A stretch of 14,709 nt of DNA from a virus. The notes under the pieces were generated by a model. The model saw only the letters and a program-made list of their open reading frames with translations. It did not search any database and was not told the origin of the DNA. Numbering within the stretch: position 1 is the first letter of the stretch; each line of letters opens with the position of its first letter. The DNA lies in the UHGV virus genome UHGV-0109417; one strand, written 5' to 3'. A program made the position numbers and the translations under genes. Positions 2,690-11,653 of the stretch are shown in pieces.

Positions 2690-3271
2690 GCTTCAGCCCT
2701 TCTTAGTAAATAGTGTGTAGGGCGACTGAAGGACCGAGTTTATGCTTTTTCGCATTGCTTTCAGTTAGTAGACCGGTATAGCACCGGAAACAATCCTACG
2801 GCAAATTGGTTGTCTGACCTCTCGGTTTTTCGTGCATTAACCGATACCCACTACAGTCTCGGCGAAAGCTGCACACCCCCAAGGTGTACTGGTAGCACTC
2901 GGCACAGCCTAGCGCGCCACTTTCTTCTCACTATCCAGTCTAATTTTATCCCCTAGTCAGACACTCAGATGTAGTGCTCAGCAGCGGCATGCGGGGGAAT
3001 ACAAAAACTCGGACAAAATTGGGCCCTCCTTTTTGAATCACTCGCGGGGATGTAGTTATTAATACATGGGAAAAGATCTGTTTTCAAATCCAACATTATA
3101 TGGTTTCAATACCACGGGGTGGCTATGTGTTTCTCATTATTATTTACAATCTACTGTAATCGCTCCGAACGCAAATGCGTCAATACTCGAATCAACTGAT
3201 CATCCTGCCACGACTGAAATCTCAAATAGGCCGTTTCTCAAGTAAGAGATTTTGAATGCATTATTGGCTAC

Positions 3272-3300
3272 TGAAATAAAAAACCCAGCGCAAACTGGGT
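3272..3300 (-). terminator. intrinsic terminator after the 164-aa gene
   Basis: Stem ACCCAG (3283-3288) / CTGGGT (3295-3300) with loop CGCAAA. On the minus strand it is followed by TTTTTTAT. Confidence 0.65.
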
Positions 3301-3318
3301 TCATATGAAATTTTTTTG

Positions 3319-3813
3319 TCATTTCCAATTGCAAGACTGTGAAATTTTTTCCACAACCTTATCAATCTCAGACAAGTCAAACTCAACTACTTGCATAGTT
3401 GATCCATAAGGTTCAAACCCAAAAATAGCTTTTTTATGCTTAGCCAAGGTCTTTATAAATTGTATTGGTTGTGGAGCAAATGCAGAATCACCGCCTTCCC
3501 CACCTCCCCAAACACTCTTGACCGGCTTTCCGCCATCTAACCGCACTGTAATTCTTGGGTTGTCCGAACCCATATAATCATTGAATGATAAATAGGCATC
3601 TGTTTTGTTATCACTACAACGCAACACCAGTGAAGTTGCACGATCAGTACCTGCTTTGTTATATGAATCTGGTGATAAATTAAGAGCCACAAAGTCAGTC
3701 TGGTCAGTCATTTTATTTATCTCAGACTTTGTTATCCACGGCCCTAACTTCTCTACACCAGCATTTGCTGTAAACGAGGCACTTATAACAAAGGCTAAAA
3801 TAAATTTTCTCAT
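3319..3813 (-). CDS. secreted/periplasmic hypothetical protein (moron)
   Basis: 164 aa. N-terminal signal peptide MRKFILAFVISASFTANA|GVEK. AAGGAG RBS. Low GC relative to its neighbours. Has its own terminator. Confidence 0.75.
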   Translation of the reverse strand: MRKFILAFVISASFTANAGVEKLGPWITKSEINKMTDQTDFVALNLSPDSYNKAGTDRATSLVLRCSDNKTDAYLSFNDYMGSDNPRITVRLDGGKPVKSVWGGGEGGDSAFAPQPIQFIKTLAKHKKAIFGFEPYGSTMQVVEFDLSEIDKVVEKISQSCNWK

Positions 3814-6061: not shown

Positions 6062-6101
6062 TTGCGATAATTCCTCTGATTTAATTGGTTATGGCCGCCG
6101 G

Positions 6102-6347
6102 TCAGGCGGCATGTGAATCTTGTTTAATTCGGTCAGGGTTAGCTGCTTGACGGAGCCATTCAGCCGTAAACTGCCCATTTGATGCGTCAGCCAAAAGCTG
6201 CGAATAGTTGGTTTTCTCTGTGTACTCAGTACGAGGCAGCGCCGCGTTCTTCACCCACTTGTGAATAGCAACGTTCGATAGGCCACACAGGCGAGCAGCA
6301 GCGGTTTGACCGCCTACAGCTTCGATTGCAAATTGCATTGGGTTCAT
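6102..6347 (-). CDS. cro: Cro-like HTH regulator (YdaS/DUF1019 type)
   Basis: 81 aa. AVGGQTAAARLCGLSNVAIHKWVK resembles Rac YdaS (VVGGQSAMARLLGVSPPSVNQWIK). It is the first gene downstream of the predicted PR. Confidence 0.75.
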   Translation of the reverse strand: MNPMQFAIEAVGGQTAAARLCGLSNVAIHKWVKNAALPRTEYTEKTNYSQLLADASNGQFTAEWLRQAANPDRIKQDSHAA

Positions 6348-7208: not shown

Positions 7209-7254
7209 CGGTGGCCTGATGAGACGTTTTGGTGAAAGCATATAAGGACTGGTG

Positions 7255-8121
7255 ATGGAAAACACTGGCTTACACGATGTTAATTTTTCACTTAGATATG
7301 ACGGTTTGGATGCTGAAAAGCATGAGATTGAACTTTCTTCGCTCGGTGAATCGCTAAAGGGATTTTCGAAGATATTAGCTACAGCTGGAACCTTCGCATT
7401 AACCCAAAAGTACTCGCGAAGCACCTCAACTCAAGAGGTTAAAATTTACGCTACCGAAGCTAGGGCCAATTGTTTTTCTCTTGATACTATCATGAATTTT
7501 ATCAGTCAGTCTCAATTGTTCTCAGGGTCTGCGGGGGCTATACTTGGCGCATTAGTGCCTTATATCTTCGCTAAAAACTCGCAGAAGAAAGAGGAAATGA
7601 AATACCTAAAAGAAGCACTTGAGAAGGCAATTGAGGCCCTCGGAAATAAAGATAAAGATACCATCTCAGGTCTAATCTCAGTGATTGACAAGATGGCTAG
7701 TGAGTTACGCCCATCAGTTAGACAGGCAGTTTCCCCCATCGGTACCACCTGTAATAAGATAAGCGTCACACCGGGGAATGGTTTCAAGCCTGCTGTAATT
7801 GATGAGCAAGATAAAGCAGTAATAGACCAGTTGGACGACGACGAAGTTCTTGGCTTAAGGGAGTATCGAATCTTCCTTACTGAATTCGACGCTCACCGAA
7901 TGACCGCTAAAGTCATTATAGAAGGTGATGATTCAGATAAGCGCATCTCAGCACAAATAAGCGATCCATCTGCTTCAAAGGCAGACAACCCGTATCTCAT
8001 TTCACTTAGTCGTTTTCTGTCAACGGGTCTAAGTCATGAGTCAGCGGTAAAAGTAACTGCCAAAGCAGCAGTTAGAAAAGGGGCTATTAGTAAACTTTTC
8101 ATAGTTGATATTGAGCTTTAA
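7255..8121 (+). CDS. hypothetical 288-aa protein in the rexAB position
   Basis: ATG 7255 with AAGGA 7 nt upstream, 47 nt after the cI stop, with no terminator between. One hydrophobic segment, [18 protein letters not shown] (aa ~88-105). No family recognised. Confidence 0.8.
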
Positions 8122-8123
8122 CA

Positions 8124-8149
8124 ACCGGCCACCGCGCCGGGTTTTTTGT
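8124..8149 (+). terminator. intrinsic terminator shared by the convergent 288-aa and 72-aa genes
   Basis: Stem CCGGC (8125-8129) / GCCGG (8136-8140), loop CACCGC, then GTTTTTTG. Weaker on the minus strand (followed by TTGTT). Confidence 0.6.
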
Positions 8150-8151
8150 GC

Positions 8152-8370
8152 CTACTTCACAGCTTTACTACCCTTCCTGACTATCTCAGCTGCATCCCGT
8201 AGCATCCCCTTATGGATCACGTTTCCTACGGCTTTGCGCTTCCCTTCCAGAAATCCCACAATGTTGTCCTTATTGATTTCAATTCCGTTATAAACCAGCT
8301 CGAACACTACGCACCCAACCTCTCCAGCCATGAAGGCCATTCGTTCATCTGCACGTTCATCTCGTTCCAT
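8152..8370 (-). CDS. hypothetical 72-aa protein adjacent to OL
   Basis: MERDERADERMAFMAGEVGCVVFELVYNGIEINKDNIVGFLEGKRKAVGNVIHKGMLRDAAEIVRKGSKAVK. ATG 8370 is preceded by AGGAGGT. The tracked start at 8412 has no RBS. Confidence 0.7.
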   Translation of the reverse strand: MERDERADERMAFMAGEVGCVVFELVYNGIEINKDNIVGFLEGKRKAVGNVIHKGMLRDAAEIVRKGSKAVK

Positions 8371-8432
8371 AGCTACCTCCTGATGTTTTTTGCAGCATAG
8401 CACGTACTGCACAAATCCATAACAGAACTAAA

Positions 8433-8517
8433 TTAACCAATAAATCATAACCTTAATAACCAATGGCAAAATAATTAACCAACGGTTATTGACTGAAAAT
8501 AACCATTAGTTAATAAT
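8433..8517 (+). promoter_or_regulatory. OL operators and PL promoter
   Basis: -35 TTGACT 8489-8494, 17-nt spacer, -10 AATAAT 8512-8517. Dyads TTAACCAACGGTTAT 8475-8489 and ATAACCATTAGTTAA 8499-8513 have the same consensus and the same 24-bp centre spacing as the OR pair. Extra half-sites (TTAACC/ATAACC) occur at 8433, 8447 and 8456. Confidence 0.65.
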
Positions 8518-8563
8518 CAGCTCATCGAAACGAAACATCGACAGCTGAGCGAAGTTAGCCAGC

Positions 8564-8602
8564 GGCGGACAGCAAGTCGCCTGCTTCTTTAACAAATCAG
8601 AC
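8564..8602 (+). promoter_or_regulatory. boxA-like antitermination element preceded by a small hairpin (nutL-equivalent, rrn-like order)
   Basis: TGCTTCTTTAACAA (8582-8595) versus the boxA consensus TGCTCTTTAACAA (one extra T). It continues ATCAGAC, like the rrn leader (TTTATCAGAC). Hairpin GGCGG (8564-8568) / TCGCC (8577-8581). Confidence 0.45.
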
Positions 8603-9062
8603 TGAGTGACAGGCAAGCCGTAGCTCTCCTGGCAAAAAGAAATGGCACCCGATGGGATCGAGGTAAGCACTGAGTCCGTATGCGTACGGTAGGTGTAGAG
8701 GACCACGCTGCGATGAGCTGATAAGTCACTCAATTTGAAGCGCTCCGATGATGGGGCGCTGATTCAACTTAGAGGAGTGATTCCAATGAAGAACTAAAGC
8801 GGACAGACCGCAGCCTAAAGGCAATGCAGCAGTAATGATGCCGCCCTGAGTCGCCGAATGGCGAGCCTGTGTAGTGATGGGTCAAGGTTCTTATATCAAA
8901 ACAAGCTCCGGTAAAGCAGCGAGAACGCCAGACGCGCACCGGTTATGAGCGGCGATGAGCGACAAGGTCTCAAGGGCATGTGCGCGGCCACTGCGAGAGT
9001 GTGGCGAAGTTTACCAGCAGCTCTTTGCGAGGGGCTGACGGTAAACAAAAAGAGGAGTGTGT

Positions 9063-9404
9063 ATGGCAGATAAAAAAACGGCGCCACTACTGCTTAACGT
9101 AGACGCCAGCGAGGTACTTACTCAGACCGGGGAGCTTTTAAAGTTACTTGAACTTCCAGCCAGTTCCTTTCAGGGAATTCCTGAGCATGTCGTCGATCTG
9201 TTTTTTGACCGTGTCCGTGGCCTGATTGACAACATCGTCCTTAGTGATTTCTCGACCACAGTCAGCACAACTGACGCCGGTGAAATTTGTCTCAAAGTCA
9301 AAATCATCGGGCTGGTTGAACATCTCACTTCCGCAGTCAGGGCACACGGTCCGCATGGTTTGCATGAATATATCCTTTCTACTGTTGGGGAGATTAAAGA
9401 GTAA
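9063..9404 (+). CDS. 113-aa ORF, possibly a shadow of the antisense zinc-ribbon gene
   Basis: Strong RBS (AGAGGAG 9051-9057, ATG 9063) and the same strand as the operon. However, the composition is L/V-rich with CTT-dominated Leu codons, as expected for the codon-opposed antisense frame of an acidic protein. Confidence 0.3.
   Translation: MADKKTAPLLLNVDASEVLTQTGELLKLLELPASSFQGIPEHVVDLFFDRVRGLIDNIVLSDFSTTVSTTDAGEICLKVKIIGLVEHLTSAVRAHGPHGLHEYILSTVGEIKE
9144..9365 (-). CDS. 73-aa zinc-ribbon protein (antisense to the PL operon)
   Basis: MQTMRTVCPDCGSEMFNQPDDFDFETNFTGVSCADCGREITKDD... Two CxxCG knuckles lie 22 aa apart. AAGGA 9 nt upstream of the ATG. A T7 run preceded by a weak hairpin lies about 50-70 nt downstream on the minus strand (9070-9110). 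Confidence 0.55.
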   Translation of the reverse strand: MQTMRTVCPDCGSEMFNQPDDFDFETNFTGVSCADCGREITKDDVVNQATDTVKKQIDDMLRNSLKGTGWKFK

Positions 9405-9474
9405 GCGATTTCTTGCTGTTGGGGAATAGCGGGAAAGCGCGCGCCGGGCGCGGATAAATACCCCGGCACTAACT

Positions 9475-9603
9475 GGAATGTTTTGGGCTGGCAGACGGTT
9501 ATCAGCTAGTTGGTGAGGTAATGGCTCACCAAGGCGACGACGGCCTTCCCTGCTGCTTGAAAGCGGGGAGCCAGCACCAAAACATTTCTCCCGCATCAGC
9601 GGG
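9475..9603 (+). ncRNA. stem-closed structured element containing 16S rRNA-like sequence (function unknown)
   Basis: Closing stem 9475-9492 / 9570-9588 (10 bp + bulge + 6 bp, plus 2 more pairs). Internal hairpins 9510-9532 and 9548-9568, and a 3' hairpin 9590-9603. 9504-9540 matches conserved 16S sequence from memory. No credible ORF covers the element. Confidence 0.45.
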
Positions 9604-9623
9604 TAACGACAGAGGGTAAGGGG

Positions 9624-9920
9624 ATGATCGACGACATCAAGCGCATCGACTCAATGATAAATGCGCTTCGCAATATGAAACAGGACATCAAGCGTCAGCA
9701 GAAACTAAGTGAAATAAACAGTTTAGACCTGTCGCCGAAGCAAGCTCAAAAGCGCAATGCCGATGCTGACTGGATTGCGATGGAACAGATTAAGCGTCGG
9801 CATGAGCTGCACGCTCTGTCTGTTGAGCTTGGGTTCGCTGAGCGCCGGGAAAGTTATGCTCCATTTGAATTAACTGACGGGTGGCACCGATTCGACCACA
9901 AGCCGCGCGAACCTCAATAG
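9624..9920 (+). CDS. hypothetical 98-aa protein
   Basis: ATG 9624 follows AGGGTAAGGGG. K/R/Q-rich helical N-terminal half. Followed directly by a terminator. Confidence 0.7.
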   Translation: MIDDIKRIDSMINALRNMKQDIKRQQKLSEINSLDLSPKQAQKRNADADWIAMEQIKRRHELHALSVELGFAERRESYAPFELTDGWHRFDHKPREPQ

Positions 9921-9942
9921 CCGCCTAACCAGCGGCTTTTTC
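9919..9942 (+). terminator. intrinsic terminator inside the PL operon
   Basis: Stem GCCGC (9920-9924) / GCGGC (9932-9936), 7-nt loop, then TTTTTC. Confidence 0.7.
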
Positions 9943-10075
9943 ATACCTGGAGTCATTTACGAGTGGCTCAAGTTATGACAATCGGCGGCCATCCACCGCC
10001 CATTGAAACACTGAATAAATGCGTTGAAGTCTTGTATTAACCGTTCCGTTCGCCGCGATAAGGCCAAGAGGATTT

Positions 10076-10234
10076 ATGACAGTCACCCACAACGGCAAGC
10101 AGTACACAGCCAAAAAGCTCAACGATAACGAGTGGCAGCTGACGTCGGTGTCGGCACCGCGTGAAAAACTGGTGCTTAACCGCTGGCAGATGCATGTTGC
10201 CGGACTTCTTGAGCAGGTGGAGAAACAATCATGA
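10076..10234 (+). CDS. hypothetical 52-aa protein (below the ORF-track cutoff)
   Basis: MTVTHNGKQYTAKKLNDNEWQLTSVSAPREKLVLNRWQMHVAGLLEQVEKQS*. AGAGGA upstream. The stop overlaps the next ATG (ATGA). Confidence 0.5.
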   Translation: MTVTHNGKQYTAKKLNDNEWQLTSVSAPREKLVLNRWQMHVAGLLEQVEKQS

Positions 10235-10404
10235 CCATCAATCACCAGTTACTCCGTATGGCCCAGCAGAAAGCCCGTGACGCCATTGCACAACGCAACG
10301 GCACCAAGTGGATGGAAGCCAACGAAGAGATGAAGATAGCCGCTGGCATGCCGTGGTATCGCGGTAATTCGAATCAGCGTGGAGGCGAGCATGCAGAAGT
10401 TTGA
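10231..10404 (+). CDS. hypothetical 57-aa protein (below the ORF-track cutoff)
   Basis: MTINHQLLRMAQQKARDAIAQRNGTKWMEANEEMKIAAGMPWYRGNSNQRGGEHAEV*. Coupled to its neighbours on both sides. Confidence 0.5.
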   Translation: MTINHQLLRMAQQKARDAIAQRNGTKWMEANEEMKIAAGMPWYRGNSNQRGGEHAEV

Positions 10405-10681: not shown

Positions 10682-11653
10682 ATGAGTGAAGCAACGGATT
10701 TAGTCGTCATAGAGAAGTCGAACGCGATGGCAGTCTTTACCAGCAAAGAGCAGCTCGACCCGCTTCTCGAGAAAATCGAGACAGAGGCCCGCAGCCTGGT
10801 ACCCGACCTGACCACTAAGAAAGGTCGCGACGCCATCGCATCAATGGCCCACAAGGTCGCCCGCTCGAAAACGTACATCGACAACGCCGGTAAAGACCTC
10901 GTTGCAGAGCTCAAGGCATTGCCCAAGCAGATCGACGAAAGCCGCCGAATTGTGCGTGAGCGACTCGACGCGCTGAAAGATGAAGTTCGCCGCCCGCTGA
11001 CCGAGTGGGAAGCCGAACAGGAGCGCATTAAAGCCGAAGAGGAAATGAATGCGTGGCATGCCGAAGCTCTGGAGATGAACGCAGAGTTCGATCGCCAACT
11101 GGCAGCACGACGCGAAGCAGACCACGAAATGGCTCTGCTGATGAATGACAAGTTTGACCGTGACCGCGAAGAGCAGCGCCGCCAGGCGGAACAGGCACAG
11201 CGTGAACGTGACGAGCGTCTGAAGCAGGAAGCGGCAGAACAAGCCCGCCGCGATGCCGAAGCGAAGCACAAAGCGGAGATTGAAGCCGCAGCACGCCGTG
11301 AAGCTGAAGAGAAAGCGCGTGCAGAGCTGGCAGAGCGCCAGCGCATCGAAACGGAGCAGCGTGCGGAACGCGAGAAGCAGGAAGCGGAAGCGCGGGCGGA
11401 ACGGGAAAAAGCCGCGGCAGTGGAAACTGAGCGCCTCAAGGCAAAACAGGCAGAAGAAGCCCGCCTGGCTGAAGAGAAGCGCATCGCCGACGAACAGGCT
11501 AAGCGCGAAGCTGACGTGAAGCACCGCAAGACGGTCGGCACCAACATCGTTAACGCGCTCACCAGCCACACCAGCTTAACTCGCGAACAGGCTATCGAAG
11601 TGCTCACCGCTCTGAAAGATGACCTGATCCCCTGCGCGAAAATTCATTACTGA
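10682..11653 (+). CDS. DUF1351-like phage protein with a long E/R/A/K/Q coiled-coil insert
   Basis: 323 aa. The N-terminal ~110 aa (VIEKSNAMAVFTSKEQLDPLLEKIETEAR...KGRDAIASMAHKVARSKTYIDNAGKDL...PLTEWE) resembles the DUF1351 proteins found next to RecT/Bet genes. The middle ~170 aa is low-complexity charged helix. Confidence 0.8.
   Translation: MSEATDLVVIEKSNAMAVFTSKEQLDPLLEKIETEARSLVPDLTTKKGRDAIASMAHKVARSKTYIDNAGKDLVAELKALPKQIDESRRIVRERLDALKDEVRRPLTEWEAEQERIKAEEEMNAWHAEALEMNAEFDRQLAARREADHEMALLMNDKFDRDREEQRRQAEQAQRERDERLKQEAAEQARRDAEAKHKAEIEAAARREAEEKARAELAERQRIETEQRAEREKQEAEARAEREKAAAVETERLKAKQAEEARLAEEKRIADEQAKREADVKHRKTVGTNIVNALTSHTSLTREQAIEVLTALKDDLIPCAKIHY

Follow-up and report, generated by a model that had tools for sequence, protein, structure and literature searches.

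A boxA-headed structured RNA in the early-left leader of a phi80/HK639-like prophage, a candidate antitermination signal without a lambda-type N

We have analyzed UHGV virus genome UHGV-0109417, a 14,709-nt stretch of viral DNA that is called the window throughout, with attention to positions 8518-9062, which follow its early-left promoter PL. The best explanation of this interval is that it forms the untranslated 5' leader of the PL operon in a mosaic, phi80/HK639-like lambdoid prophage. The leader is a patchwork of conserved RNA modules, apparently not described before, with a boxA at its head, and two of these, here termed modules A and B, are conserved structured RNAs without a match in Rfam. 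The entire arrangement is found in 12 complete Escherichia coli genomes. In view of the fusion of module A to boxA and its mutual exclusion with both N and the put RNA, we tentatively read boxA plus module A as a cis-acting antitermination signal that works without a lambda-type N, a reading that we hold with a little less than even confidence.

The mechanism that we envisage builds on what boxA does elsewhere. It is the loading site for NusB/NusE and the Nus complex in rrn operons, at nut sites, and in CRISPR arrays, and boxA/Nus complexes are known to shield long stretches of untranslated RNA against Rho (PMC7665894, PMC5725501). Here, boxA would recruit NusB/NusE (S10), and hence the Nus complex, to RNA polymerase while the transcript is still short, and boxA and module A would jointly keep PL transcription termination-resistant with no need for lambda-type N. 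That resistance would have to span ∼1.1 kb of essentially untranslated RNA, where Rho is a threat (a length that presumes that the plus-strand open reading frame, ORF, at 9063-9404 is not real), and then the intrinsic terminator at 9920-9942. The protein annotated as N in phi80 records, whose gene lies between the leader and this terminator, would be cargo or an accessory regulator of uncertain contribution.

The PL leader and its mosaic origin

PL had already been called in a first-pass annotation of the window, made from the sequence alone, and both a promoter scan (10/12) and alignment with the annotated phi80 pL bear the call out. It is the sole promoter-like site in 8000-10300, and it sits within operator-like inverted repeats, one of 17 pairs at 8474-8514. 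The same annotation had described the ∼540 nt after PL as free of any long ORF, with which our ORF listing agrees: only two plus-strand ORFs of at least 40 amino acids (aa) lie in 8518-9062, at 8945-9073 (42 aa, the longest) and 8980-9102 (40 aa). BLAST against phi80 and HK639 divides the surroundings into the mosaic blocks of Table 1; in addition, the first 45 nt of the leader (8523-8567) are 95.6% identical to HK639.

The closest known system is the phi80 PL-nutL-N-tL1 region (M11919, X13065, and NC_021190); the region studied here is a variant of it in which other sequence has taken the place of the post-boxA leader. Shared at about 90% identity are PL/OL, the initial ∼79 nt of the transcript with the hairpin and boxA, gene 40A, and a small divergent ORF; shared also are a 98-aa ‘N’ ORF that is 100% identical, the terminator tL1A, and the hairpin after the cro-like gene. 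The two differ in the immunity (cI/cro) region and in what follows boxA, where phi80 has 292 nt from boxA to N, with its putative nutL core, and the window instead has about 1 kb made up of modules A and B, the hairpin and ORF known from HK639, and a hairpin like that of 16S rRNA.

boxA and the RNA that follows it

A boxA-like motif preceded by a hairpin, the order seen in rrn leaders, had been noticed from the sequence alone. The motif proves genuine by its homology to the phi80 nutL boxA and to the boxA of the module A relatives described below, and the hairpin at 8564-8581 does stand directly before it. As a bare motif, boxA shows no excess over chance (3 matches at up to 3 mismatches versus 4.5 expected); its significance lies in homology, because it aligns with the phi80 nutL boxA and forms the 5' edge of a module that mostly carries the consensus form GCTCTTTAACA. 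Measured against the gamma-proteobacterial consensus GYTCTTTAANA (PMC5725501), the window boxA CTTCTTTAACA matches at 10 of 11 positions (G1 to C), as does the phi80 boxA GCTTTTTAACA (C4 to T), and GCTCTTTAACA, found in most module A relatives, is a perfect match (11/11). Relative L034 keeps the stem of the upstream hairpin with a different loop, and some module A contexts have no such hairpin.

The further claim that no boxB follows boxA stands in part. Phages with a true nutL (L014 and L015) have a hairpin adjacent to boxA, and in the window no boxB-type short hairpin lies within about 10-15 nt after boxA; yet a conserved multi-helix RNA does follow, the first conserved pairing after boxA being the outer helix of a 128-nt multi-branch domain. 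The hairpin-boxA order, the near-consensus boxA, and the long untranslated RNA beyond it are all reminiscent of rrn antitermination (boxB-boxA-boxC, with NusA/B/E/G, SuhB, and S4), of CRISPR arrays, and of the suhB leader. The likeness in sequence features to an rrn-type boxA signal appears to be only approximate, and there are differences: the setting is a phage early operon, and beyond boxA come a specific structured RNA of 165 nt and intrinsic terminators.

Module A is this unit of boxA and about 165 nt of multi-helix RNA. Across 37 distinct variants, homology starts exactly at boxA and stops past the terminal hairpin, with unrelated flanks on both sides. The RNAalifold consensus has 45 pairs in 8 helices, with 99.6% of cells paired and 3 compensatory pairs, as compared to only 23-42% paired in slid controls. 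Our covariance model R2 for module A scores 213.9 bits on the window (8577-8768) and detects one copy per locus; it finds no match in phi80, HK639, HK022, mEp213, or yong1, or in the 31 phi80-N loci searched. A 20-mer of module A is carried by 51 viral contigs and occurs also in Citrobacter, Pseudocitrobacter, and Trabulsiella genomes; its matches in Verrucomicrobiota and Massilia genomes lack a module A model match and are chance. The module is not coding sequence, with no 3-base periodicity and with a stop or frameshift in some variants. We rejected the minus-strand ORF 8506-8733 (a PGAP hypothetical protein) as non-coding on the same grounds, lack of periodicity together with a stop in one variant and a frameshift in another.

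In every case an operator-flanked promoter, beside a repressor gene, precedes module A by 20-75 nt; the promoter contexts are of at least 7 unrelated types, non-lambdoid phages included. At many loci, module A is followed after 60-320 nt by a strong intrinsic terminator, with the early genes beyond it; in locus L029, promoter, module A, and terminator (GCCCCTCGCAAGAGGGGC, then a T-run) make up a compact unit of about 290 nt.

Absence of lambda-type N and of put RNA

None of 55 module A loci has a recognizable arginine-rich N in the ∼4-6 kb inspected around the module in each, and the put covariance model described below finds no put RNA at E ≤ 0.01 in any of 43. The gene annotated as N in phi80 occurs among module A loci in the window lineage only.

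For the window itself, the first-pass annotation had stated that nothing in the ∼540 nt after PL has an arginine-rich N-terminus and that the operon has no recognizable N gene, and for lambda-type N every search leads to the same result. No arginine-rich 18-aa window exists in any plus-strand frame of 8500-10080; tblastn with 11 diverse arginine-rich N proteins gave no credible match; and the leader ORFs have no N or Nun match in Pfam, PHROGs, or NCBIfam. Weak matches to arginine-rich N at 11159-11516 were rejected as compositional, falling in an E/R/A-rich 323-aa coiled-coil protein (phrog_1376). With the lambda-type N/nut systems of lambda, P22, phi21, and HK620, the window shares an early boxA in the PL transcript and terminators ahead of the recombination genes and Q, and Nus dependence would be expected here too. 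It differs from them in having no arginine-rich N, no boxB adjacent to boxA, and an orphaned module B, which elsewhere is a companion of arginine-rich N genes. Nor was a second nut site found: the PR transcript contains no credibly placed boxA-like match (at up to 3 mismatches), only the hairpin after cro.

A put-like RNA had been proposed as one way of dispensing with N, and this is excluded. A covariance model built from HK022 putL and putR and HK639 putL scores 69-96 bits on true put RNAs, versus at best 7 bits in the window (E 2.5). HK639 does have an annotated 126-nt ‘putL-like’ feature that overlaps the match to the window, yet the put core, placed by mapping HK022 putL and putR, occupies L001:2423-2497 in HK639, and homology to the window begins only at L001:2501. 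HK639 and the window have in common the start of the leader and the DNA immediately 3' of putL, and the window resembles the HK022/HK639 put systems in having a cis-acting RNA at the start of the PL transcript, but the put core is absent, and module A has a boxA whereas put does not. Rfam 15 gives no match at the gathering score anywhere in the window; in E-value mode, a 16S-like fragment (9498-9544) is the one notable match in 8450-9700.

The gene annotated as N in phi80 records

The first-pass statement that there is no recognizable N gene is right as far as 8518-9062 or a lambda-type N is concerned, but it does not extend to the operon, which contains an ORF (9624-9920) 100% identical to the phi80 coding sequence annotated N. 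Under the criterion that the first-pass annotation had set for its own refutation, this ORF counts as an N hit; it starts inside 8500-9700, the interval in which a search for N-family genes had been proposed. An alternative to our reading is a phi80-type system, in which this 98-aa protein, boxA, and Nus factors would carry polymerase through tL1A (9920-9942), as an ordinary N system whose N is unlike lambda N. The identity of the ORF speaks for it, as do the identity of the terminator to phi80 tL1A, the 90% likeness to phi80 of the PL region through boxA, the viability of phi80, which itself has neither an arginine-rich N nor put, and the consensus boxA that is often found upstream of distant members of the protein family. 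Tanaka and Matsushiro are said to have characterized phi80 N, nutL, and tL1 functionally in 1985.

The post-boxA region of phi80 is nevertheless absent from the window. Homology to the phi80 leader ends at 8595; the putative phi80 nutL core CACGTAAACGTG, considered as a candidate, occurs in neither the PL nor the PR transcript; and module A, considered as a diverged form of the phi80 post-boxA leader, has no homology to it. The protein family, too, is unlike lambda N. It belongs to family PF26859 in the protein database, where it is named only ‘regulator’ (NCBI) or ‘probable regulatory protein N’; it has no match in our local Pfam-A or NCBIfam, and the PHROG that it matches has no assigned function. 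It shows no arginine-rich motif and no similarity to a lambda-like N, and it is predicted to be well folded, the AlphaFold2 model (predicted local distance difference test, pLDDT, 90.8) consisting of two long helices and a beta hairpin. A Foldseek search of PDB with this model returned generic helical hairpins only (best E 0.37), and a sequence-profile search of PDB found nothing.

Among 37 viral loci with relatives of phi80 ‘N’, a put-type RNA lies upstream in 7, at 81-91 bits (L074, L076, L079, L085, L089, L092, and L093), and a canonical arginine-rich N lies upstream in the same operon in at least 9 more distant loci (L087, L091, L094-L096, L098, L099, L104, and L105). A role for phi80 ‘N’ as antiterminator appears doubtful, since outside the phi80 and window lineages the family usually accompanies another antitermination device; its place downstream of canonical N or put RNA suggests that the name given in 1985 may misdescribe its function. 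The 3' part of the phi80 leader (L002 2742-2875) is homologous to the segment immediately upstream of the arginine-rich N genes in L091 and L094, and phi80 may have lost an arginine-rich N gene. Relatives that match the window in leader and terminator, discussed next, have unrelated genes or none in place of this one. We regard a phi80-type system as a real possibility, though on the unlikely side.

Terminators and the genes ahead of them

Intrinsic terminators had been reported in both early operons, and both are found, at 9919-9942 (+) and at 3302-3281 (-), the latter ahead of Q. The former is identical to phi80 tL1A in place and sequence and is kept in relatives whatever gene precedes it. 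Its hairpin is one of exactly two copies of GCCGCC-TRACC-NGCGGC in the window (0.00 expected), the other lying at the end of cro, and phi80 holds a matching pair (L002:54-70 (-) and 3208-3224 (+)). The motif ends the first ORF of each early operon, with a T-run on the PL side only.

A leader like that of the window, with both modules at about 86%, occurs in 15 viral contigs, most of which also have the terminator block 9919-10072. The slot between leader and terminator holds unrelated genes in these relatives, for example those for phi80 N, a 42-aa basic peptide, proteins of 59, 81, 82, and 94 aa, or a zinc protein of 212 aa. L030 and L060 have no gene in the slot; there, module B adjoins the terminator, and no ORF ends in the terminator. 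With the slot gene unrelated or absent, read-through of the terminator cannot in general depend on it.

These data bear as well on an explanation without processive antitermination, in which boxA would do no more than shield the long untranslated leader from Rho, the terminator at 9920-9942 would be partly leaky or masked by the ribosome that finishes the upstream ORF, and modules A and B would have other roles, for example in RNase III processing, in control of downstream translation, or as released small RNAs. Masking is conceivable: the stop codons of N, cro, and most of the N-replacing genes in relatives lie at or inside the GCCGCC-TRACC-NGCGGC hairpin, and several of the ORFs end in Ala-Ala-stop within it, so that a terminating ribosome could cover the hairpin. 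The lambda N leader has an RNase III site, and it is in the corresponding place, the leader of arginine-rich N genes, that module B is found elsewhere. The compactness of the L029 unit points in the same direction, and boxA is documented as countering Rho on untranslated RNA (PMC7665894). Masking has no ORF to draw on in L030 and L060, however; the strong 7-base-pair GC-rich terminators between module A and the early genes of many phages argue for a device that permits read-through; and the mutual exclusion of module A with N and put suggests functional equivalence to them. Rho shielding as the whole explanation seems to us quite unlikely.

It is very unlikely that boxA and module A are instead a nut-like site for some phage protein other than a lambda-type N or phi80 ‘N’, encoded elsewhere in the genome: the module has a boxA and is positioned like a nut site, known N genes are absent, and only those ∼4-6 kb per locus were covered, but the surroundings of the module have no protein in common across phage types, and the module is identical in phages that differ widely in gene content.

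How well the antitermination reading stands

Several observations weigh against antitermination by boxA and module A. The window boxA departs from consensus at position 1. Variation in module A essentially comes down to two clades, so that its support from covariation is moderate. There is no second copy of module A in the PR operon, though there too a terminator precedes Q. The combination of a promoter with module A and a terminator could equally delimit a discrete small RNA, and the phi80 records assign N function to the very 98-aa ORF that is present here. To our knowledge, rrn-type Nus complexes are established as acting against Rho-dependent rather than intrinsic terminators.

The general idea of N-independent antitermination, put forward in the first-pass annotation, thus emerges altered: lambda-type N is indeed absent, and the boxA-led version has gained comparative support from the 55 loci without N, but its put-like version has fallen away, and a phi80 ‘N’ gene has come to light. 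A broader claim would be that boxA plus module A is a third early-operon antitermination device of temperate enterobacterial phages, beside N/nut and put, in which a cis-acting structured RNA uses host Nus factors and no phage protein to take polymerase through intrinsic terminators, phi80 ‘N’ being something else. In this full form we consider the claim unlikely.

Module B

Module B, about 225 nt long, begins with a Shine-Dalgarno sequence and a mini-ORF. Its homologues are 74-89% identical and always co-oriented with transcription, and in alignment A5 12 of the 44 predicted pairs show compensatory changes. A Shine-Dalgarno sequence, an invariant AATG, and an in-frame stop after 1-6 codons are present in 12 of the 17 aligned homologues, those checked by eye; the peptide sequence is not conserved. 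Homologues of the mini-ORF were noted in L010, L013, L014, L015, L017, and L106. The start of module B, where an ATG behind a Shine-Dalgarno sequence is followed 1-6 codons on by a stop, is reminiscent of the lambda bar minigenes, which are two-codon ORFs in the PL operon; the two are unrelated in sequence, though, and here the mini-ORF heads a conserved structured RNA.

In Hafnia phage yong1 and an Stx2c phage, module B follows nutL (boxA with its neighboring hairpin) and precedes an arginine-rich N gene; in mEp213, it lies directly 5' of a second arginine-rich N-like gene (gp47). The single PL operon of the mEp213 locus (L013) contains two arginine-rich N-type genes that differ from each other, at 1345-1677 and 2830-3102, with module B preceding the second. 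Other placements are after Q (Klebsiella phage RothC) and ahead of a terminase gene (vB_EcoS-733R5), and a homologue occurs also in a Providencia phage. No arginine-rich N gene accompanies module B in the window.

Table 1. Features of the early-left region and related elements in the window
Feature	Position	Strand	Remarks
PR-operon intrinsic terminator	3281-3302	-	9-pair stem and T-run; after the moron-like gene (3319-3813), ahead of ninB, rusA, and Q (415-807)
Second hairpin copy GCCGCCTGACCGGCGGC	6094-6110	-	End of cro, PR operon; without T-run
phi80-like block	7210-8595		90% identity; holds gene 40A, small divergent ORF, PL, 5' leader, hairpin, and annotated phi80 nutL boxA
PL promoter (-35 TTGACT, 17-nt spacer, -10 AATAAT)	8489-8517	+	10/12 consensus match; aligns with annotated phi80 pL/OL
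Conserved 5' leader	8523-8581	+	93-96% identity to phi80; 3' end is hairpin 8564-8581
Hairpin GGCGGACAGCAAGTCGCC	8564-8581	+	Immediately 5' of boxA
boxA TGCTTCTTTAACAA	8582-8595	+	Homologous to annotated phi80 nutL boxA
Module A (boxA and about 165 nt of multi-helix RNA)	8582-8760	+	3' end is hairpin GCGCTCCGATGATGGGGCGC (8741-8760)
Block matching neither phi80 nor HK639	8596-9009		
Shine-Dalgarno GAGGAG (8772-8777) and mini-ORF ATG AAG AAC TAA (8786-8797)	8772-8797	+	5' end of module B
Module B (conserved structured RNA of about 225 nt)	8783-9009	+	Whole element with mini-ORF about 8772-9009; homologues, alignment A5
HK639-like block	9010-9485		98% identity
Strong hairpin TTTACC..GGTAAA	9010-9045	+	Common to HK639, there just 3' of the put RNA core; fold predicted
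ORF homologous to HK639_45 (113 aa)	9063-9404	+	Function unassigned; HK639 annotation, 98% identity; overlaps antisense ORF
Putative ECs_2282-family CxxC zinc-ribbon gene	9144-9368	-	Convergent with PL transcription; mechanical ORF to 9596
16S rRNA helix 11 look-alike (47 nt)	9498-9544	+	Rfam SSU_rRNA_bacteria positions 237-283, 32.2 bits, E 2.6e-7; just 5' of ‘N’ gene
phi80-like block	9577-10079		99.4% identity
phi80 ‘N’ gene (98 aa)	9624-9920	+	100% identical to phi80 coding sequence annotated N in M11919, X13065, and NC_021190
Intrinsic terminator, phi80 tL1A	9919-9942	+	Hairpin GCCGCCTAACCAGCGGC (9920-9936) abuts N stop codon, then TTTTT

Other genes and elements

Two ORFs on opposite strands, 9063-9404 (+) and 9144-9596 (-), fully overlap. 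The plus-strand ORF has only a weak PHROG match in its longer form (9057-9404) and no NCBIfam match as 9063-9404. The antisense ORF matches NCBIfam NF047912 at 80.8 bits (cutoff 37) over residues 84-139, and PGAP annotates the zinc-ribbon gene in CX21, 09-00049, and AW1.7. The HK639 record favors the plus strand as coding and PGAP/NCBIfam the minus strand; the substitution pattern favors neither. Phage vB_EcoM-606R2 has a different zinc-ribbon gene at the equivalent antisense position after module A.

The 16S-like hairpin is invariant in 7 sequence variants, and a stem flanking it shows compensated variation; it may derive from captured rRNA or act as a ribosomal-protein mimic. ORF 7252-8121 (+), which stands between cI and PL where lambda has rexAB, encodes a 289-aa homologue of the phi80 gene 40A product with DUF7946 and DUF7947, which may be an exclusion or defense gene expressed by the prophage. 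In the PR operon, a moron-like gene (3319-3813, minus strand) with its own terminator after it lies between replication gene P and ninB; it encodes a secreted 164-aa protein with a signal-peptide-like N-terminus (phrog_1848, function unassigned).

Implications

Comparison of these loci shows that early-left leaders in this group of phages are built from exchangeable RNA modules. Were boxA plus module A confirmed as a self-sufficient antitermination signal, antitermination of the rrn-like, Nus-only kind would be extended to phage early operons and to intrinsic terminators, the function of the phi80 ‘N’ protein would be reopened as a question, and dozens of prophages in E. coli and its relatives among the Enterobacteriaceae (Citrobacter, Pseudocitrobacter, and Trabulsiella) would carry the device, a compact element of about 180 nt. 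Even if that reading fails, two structured RNAs without an Rfam match have been delimited in these leaders, one of them with a conserved mini-ORF.

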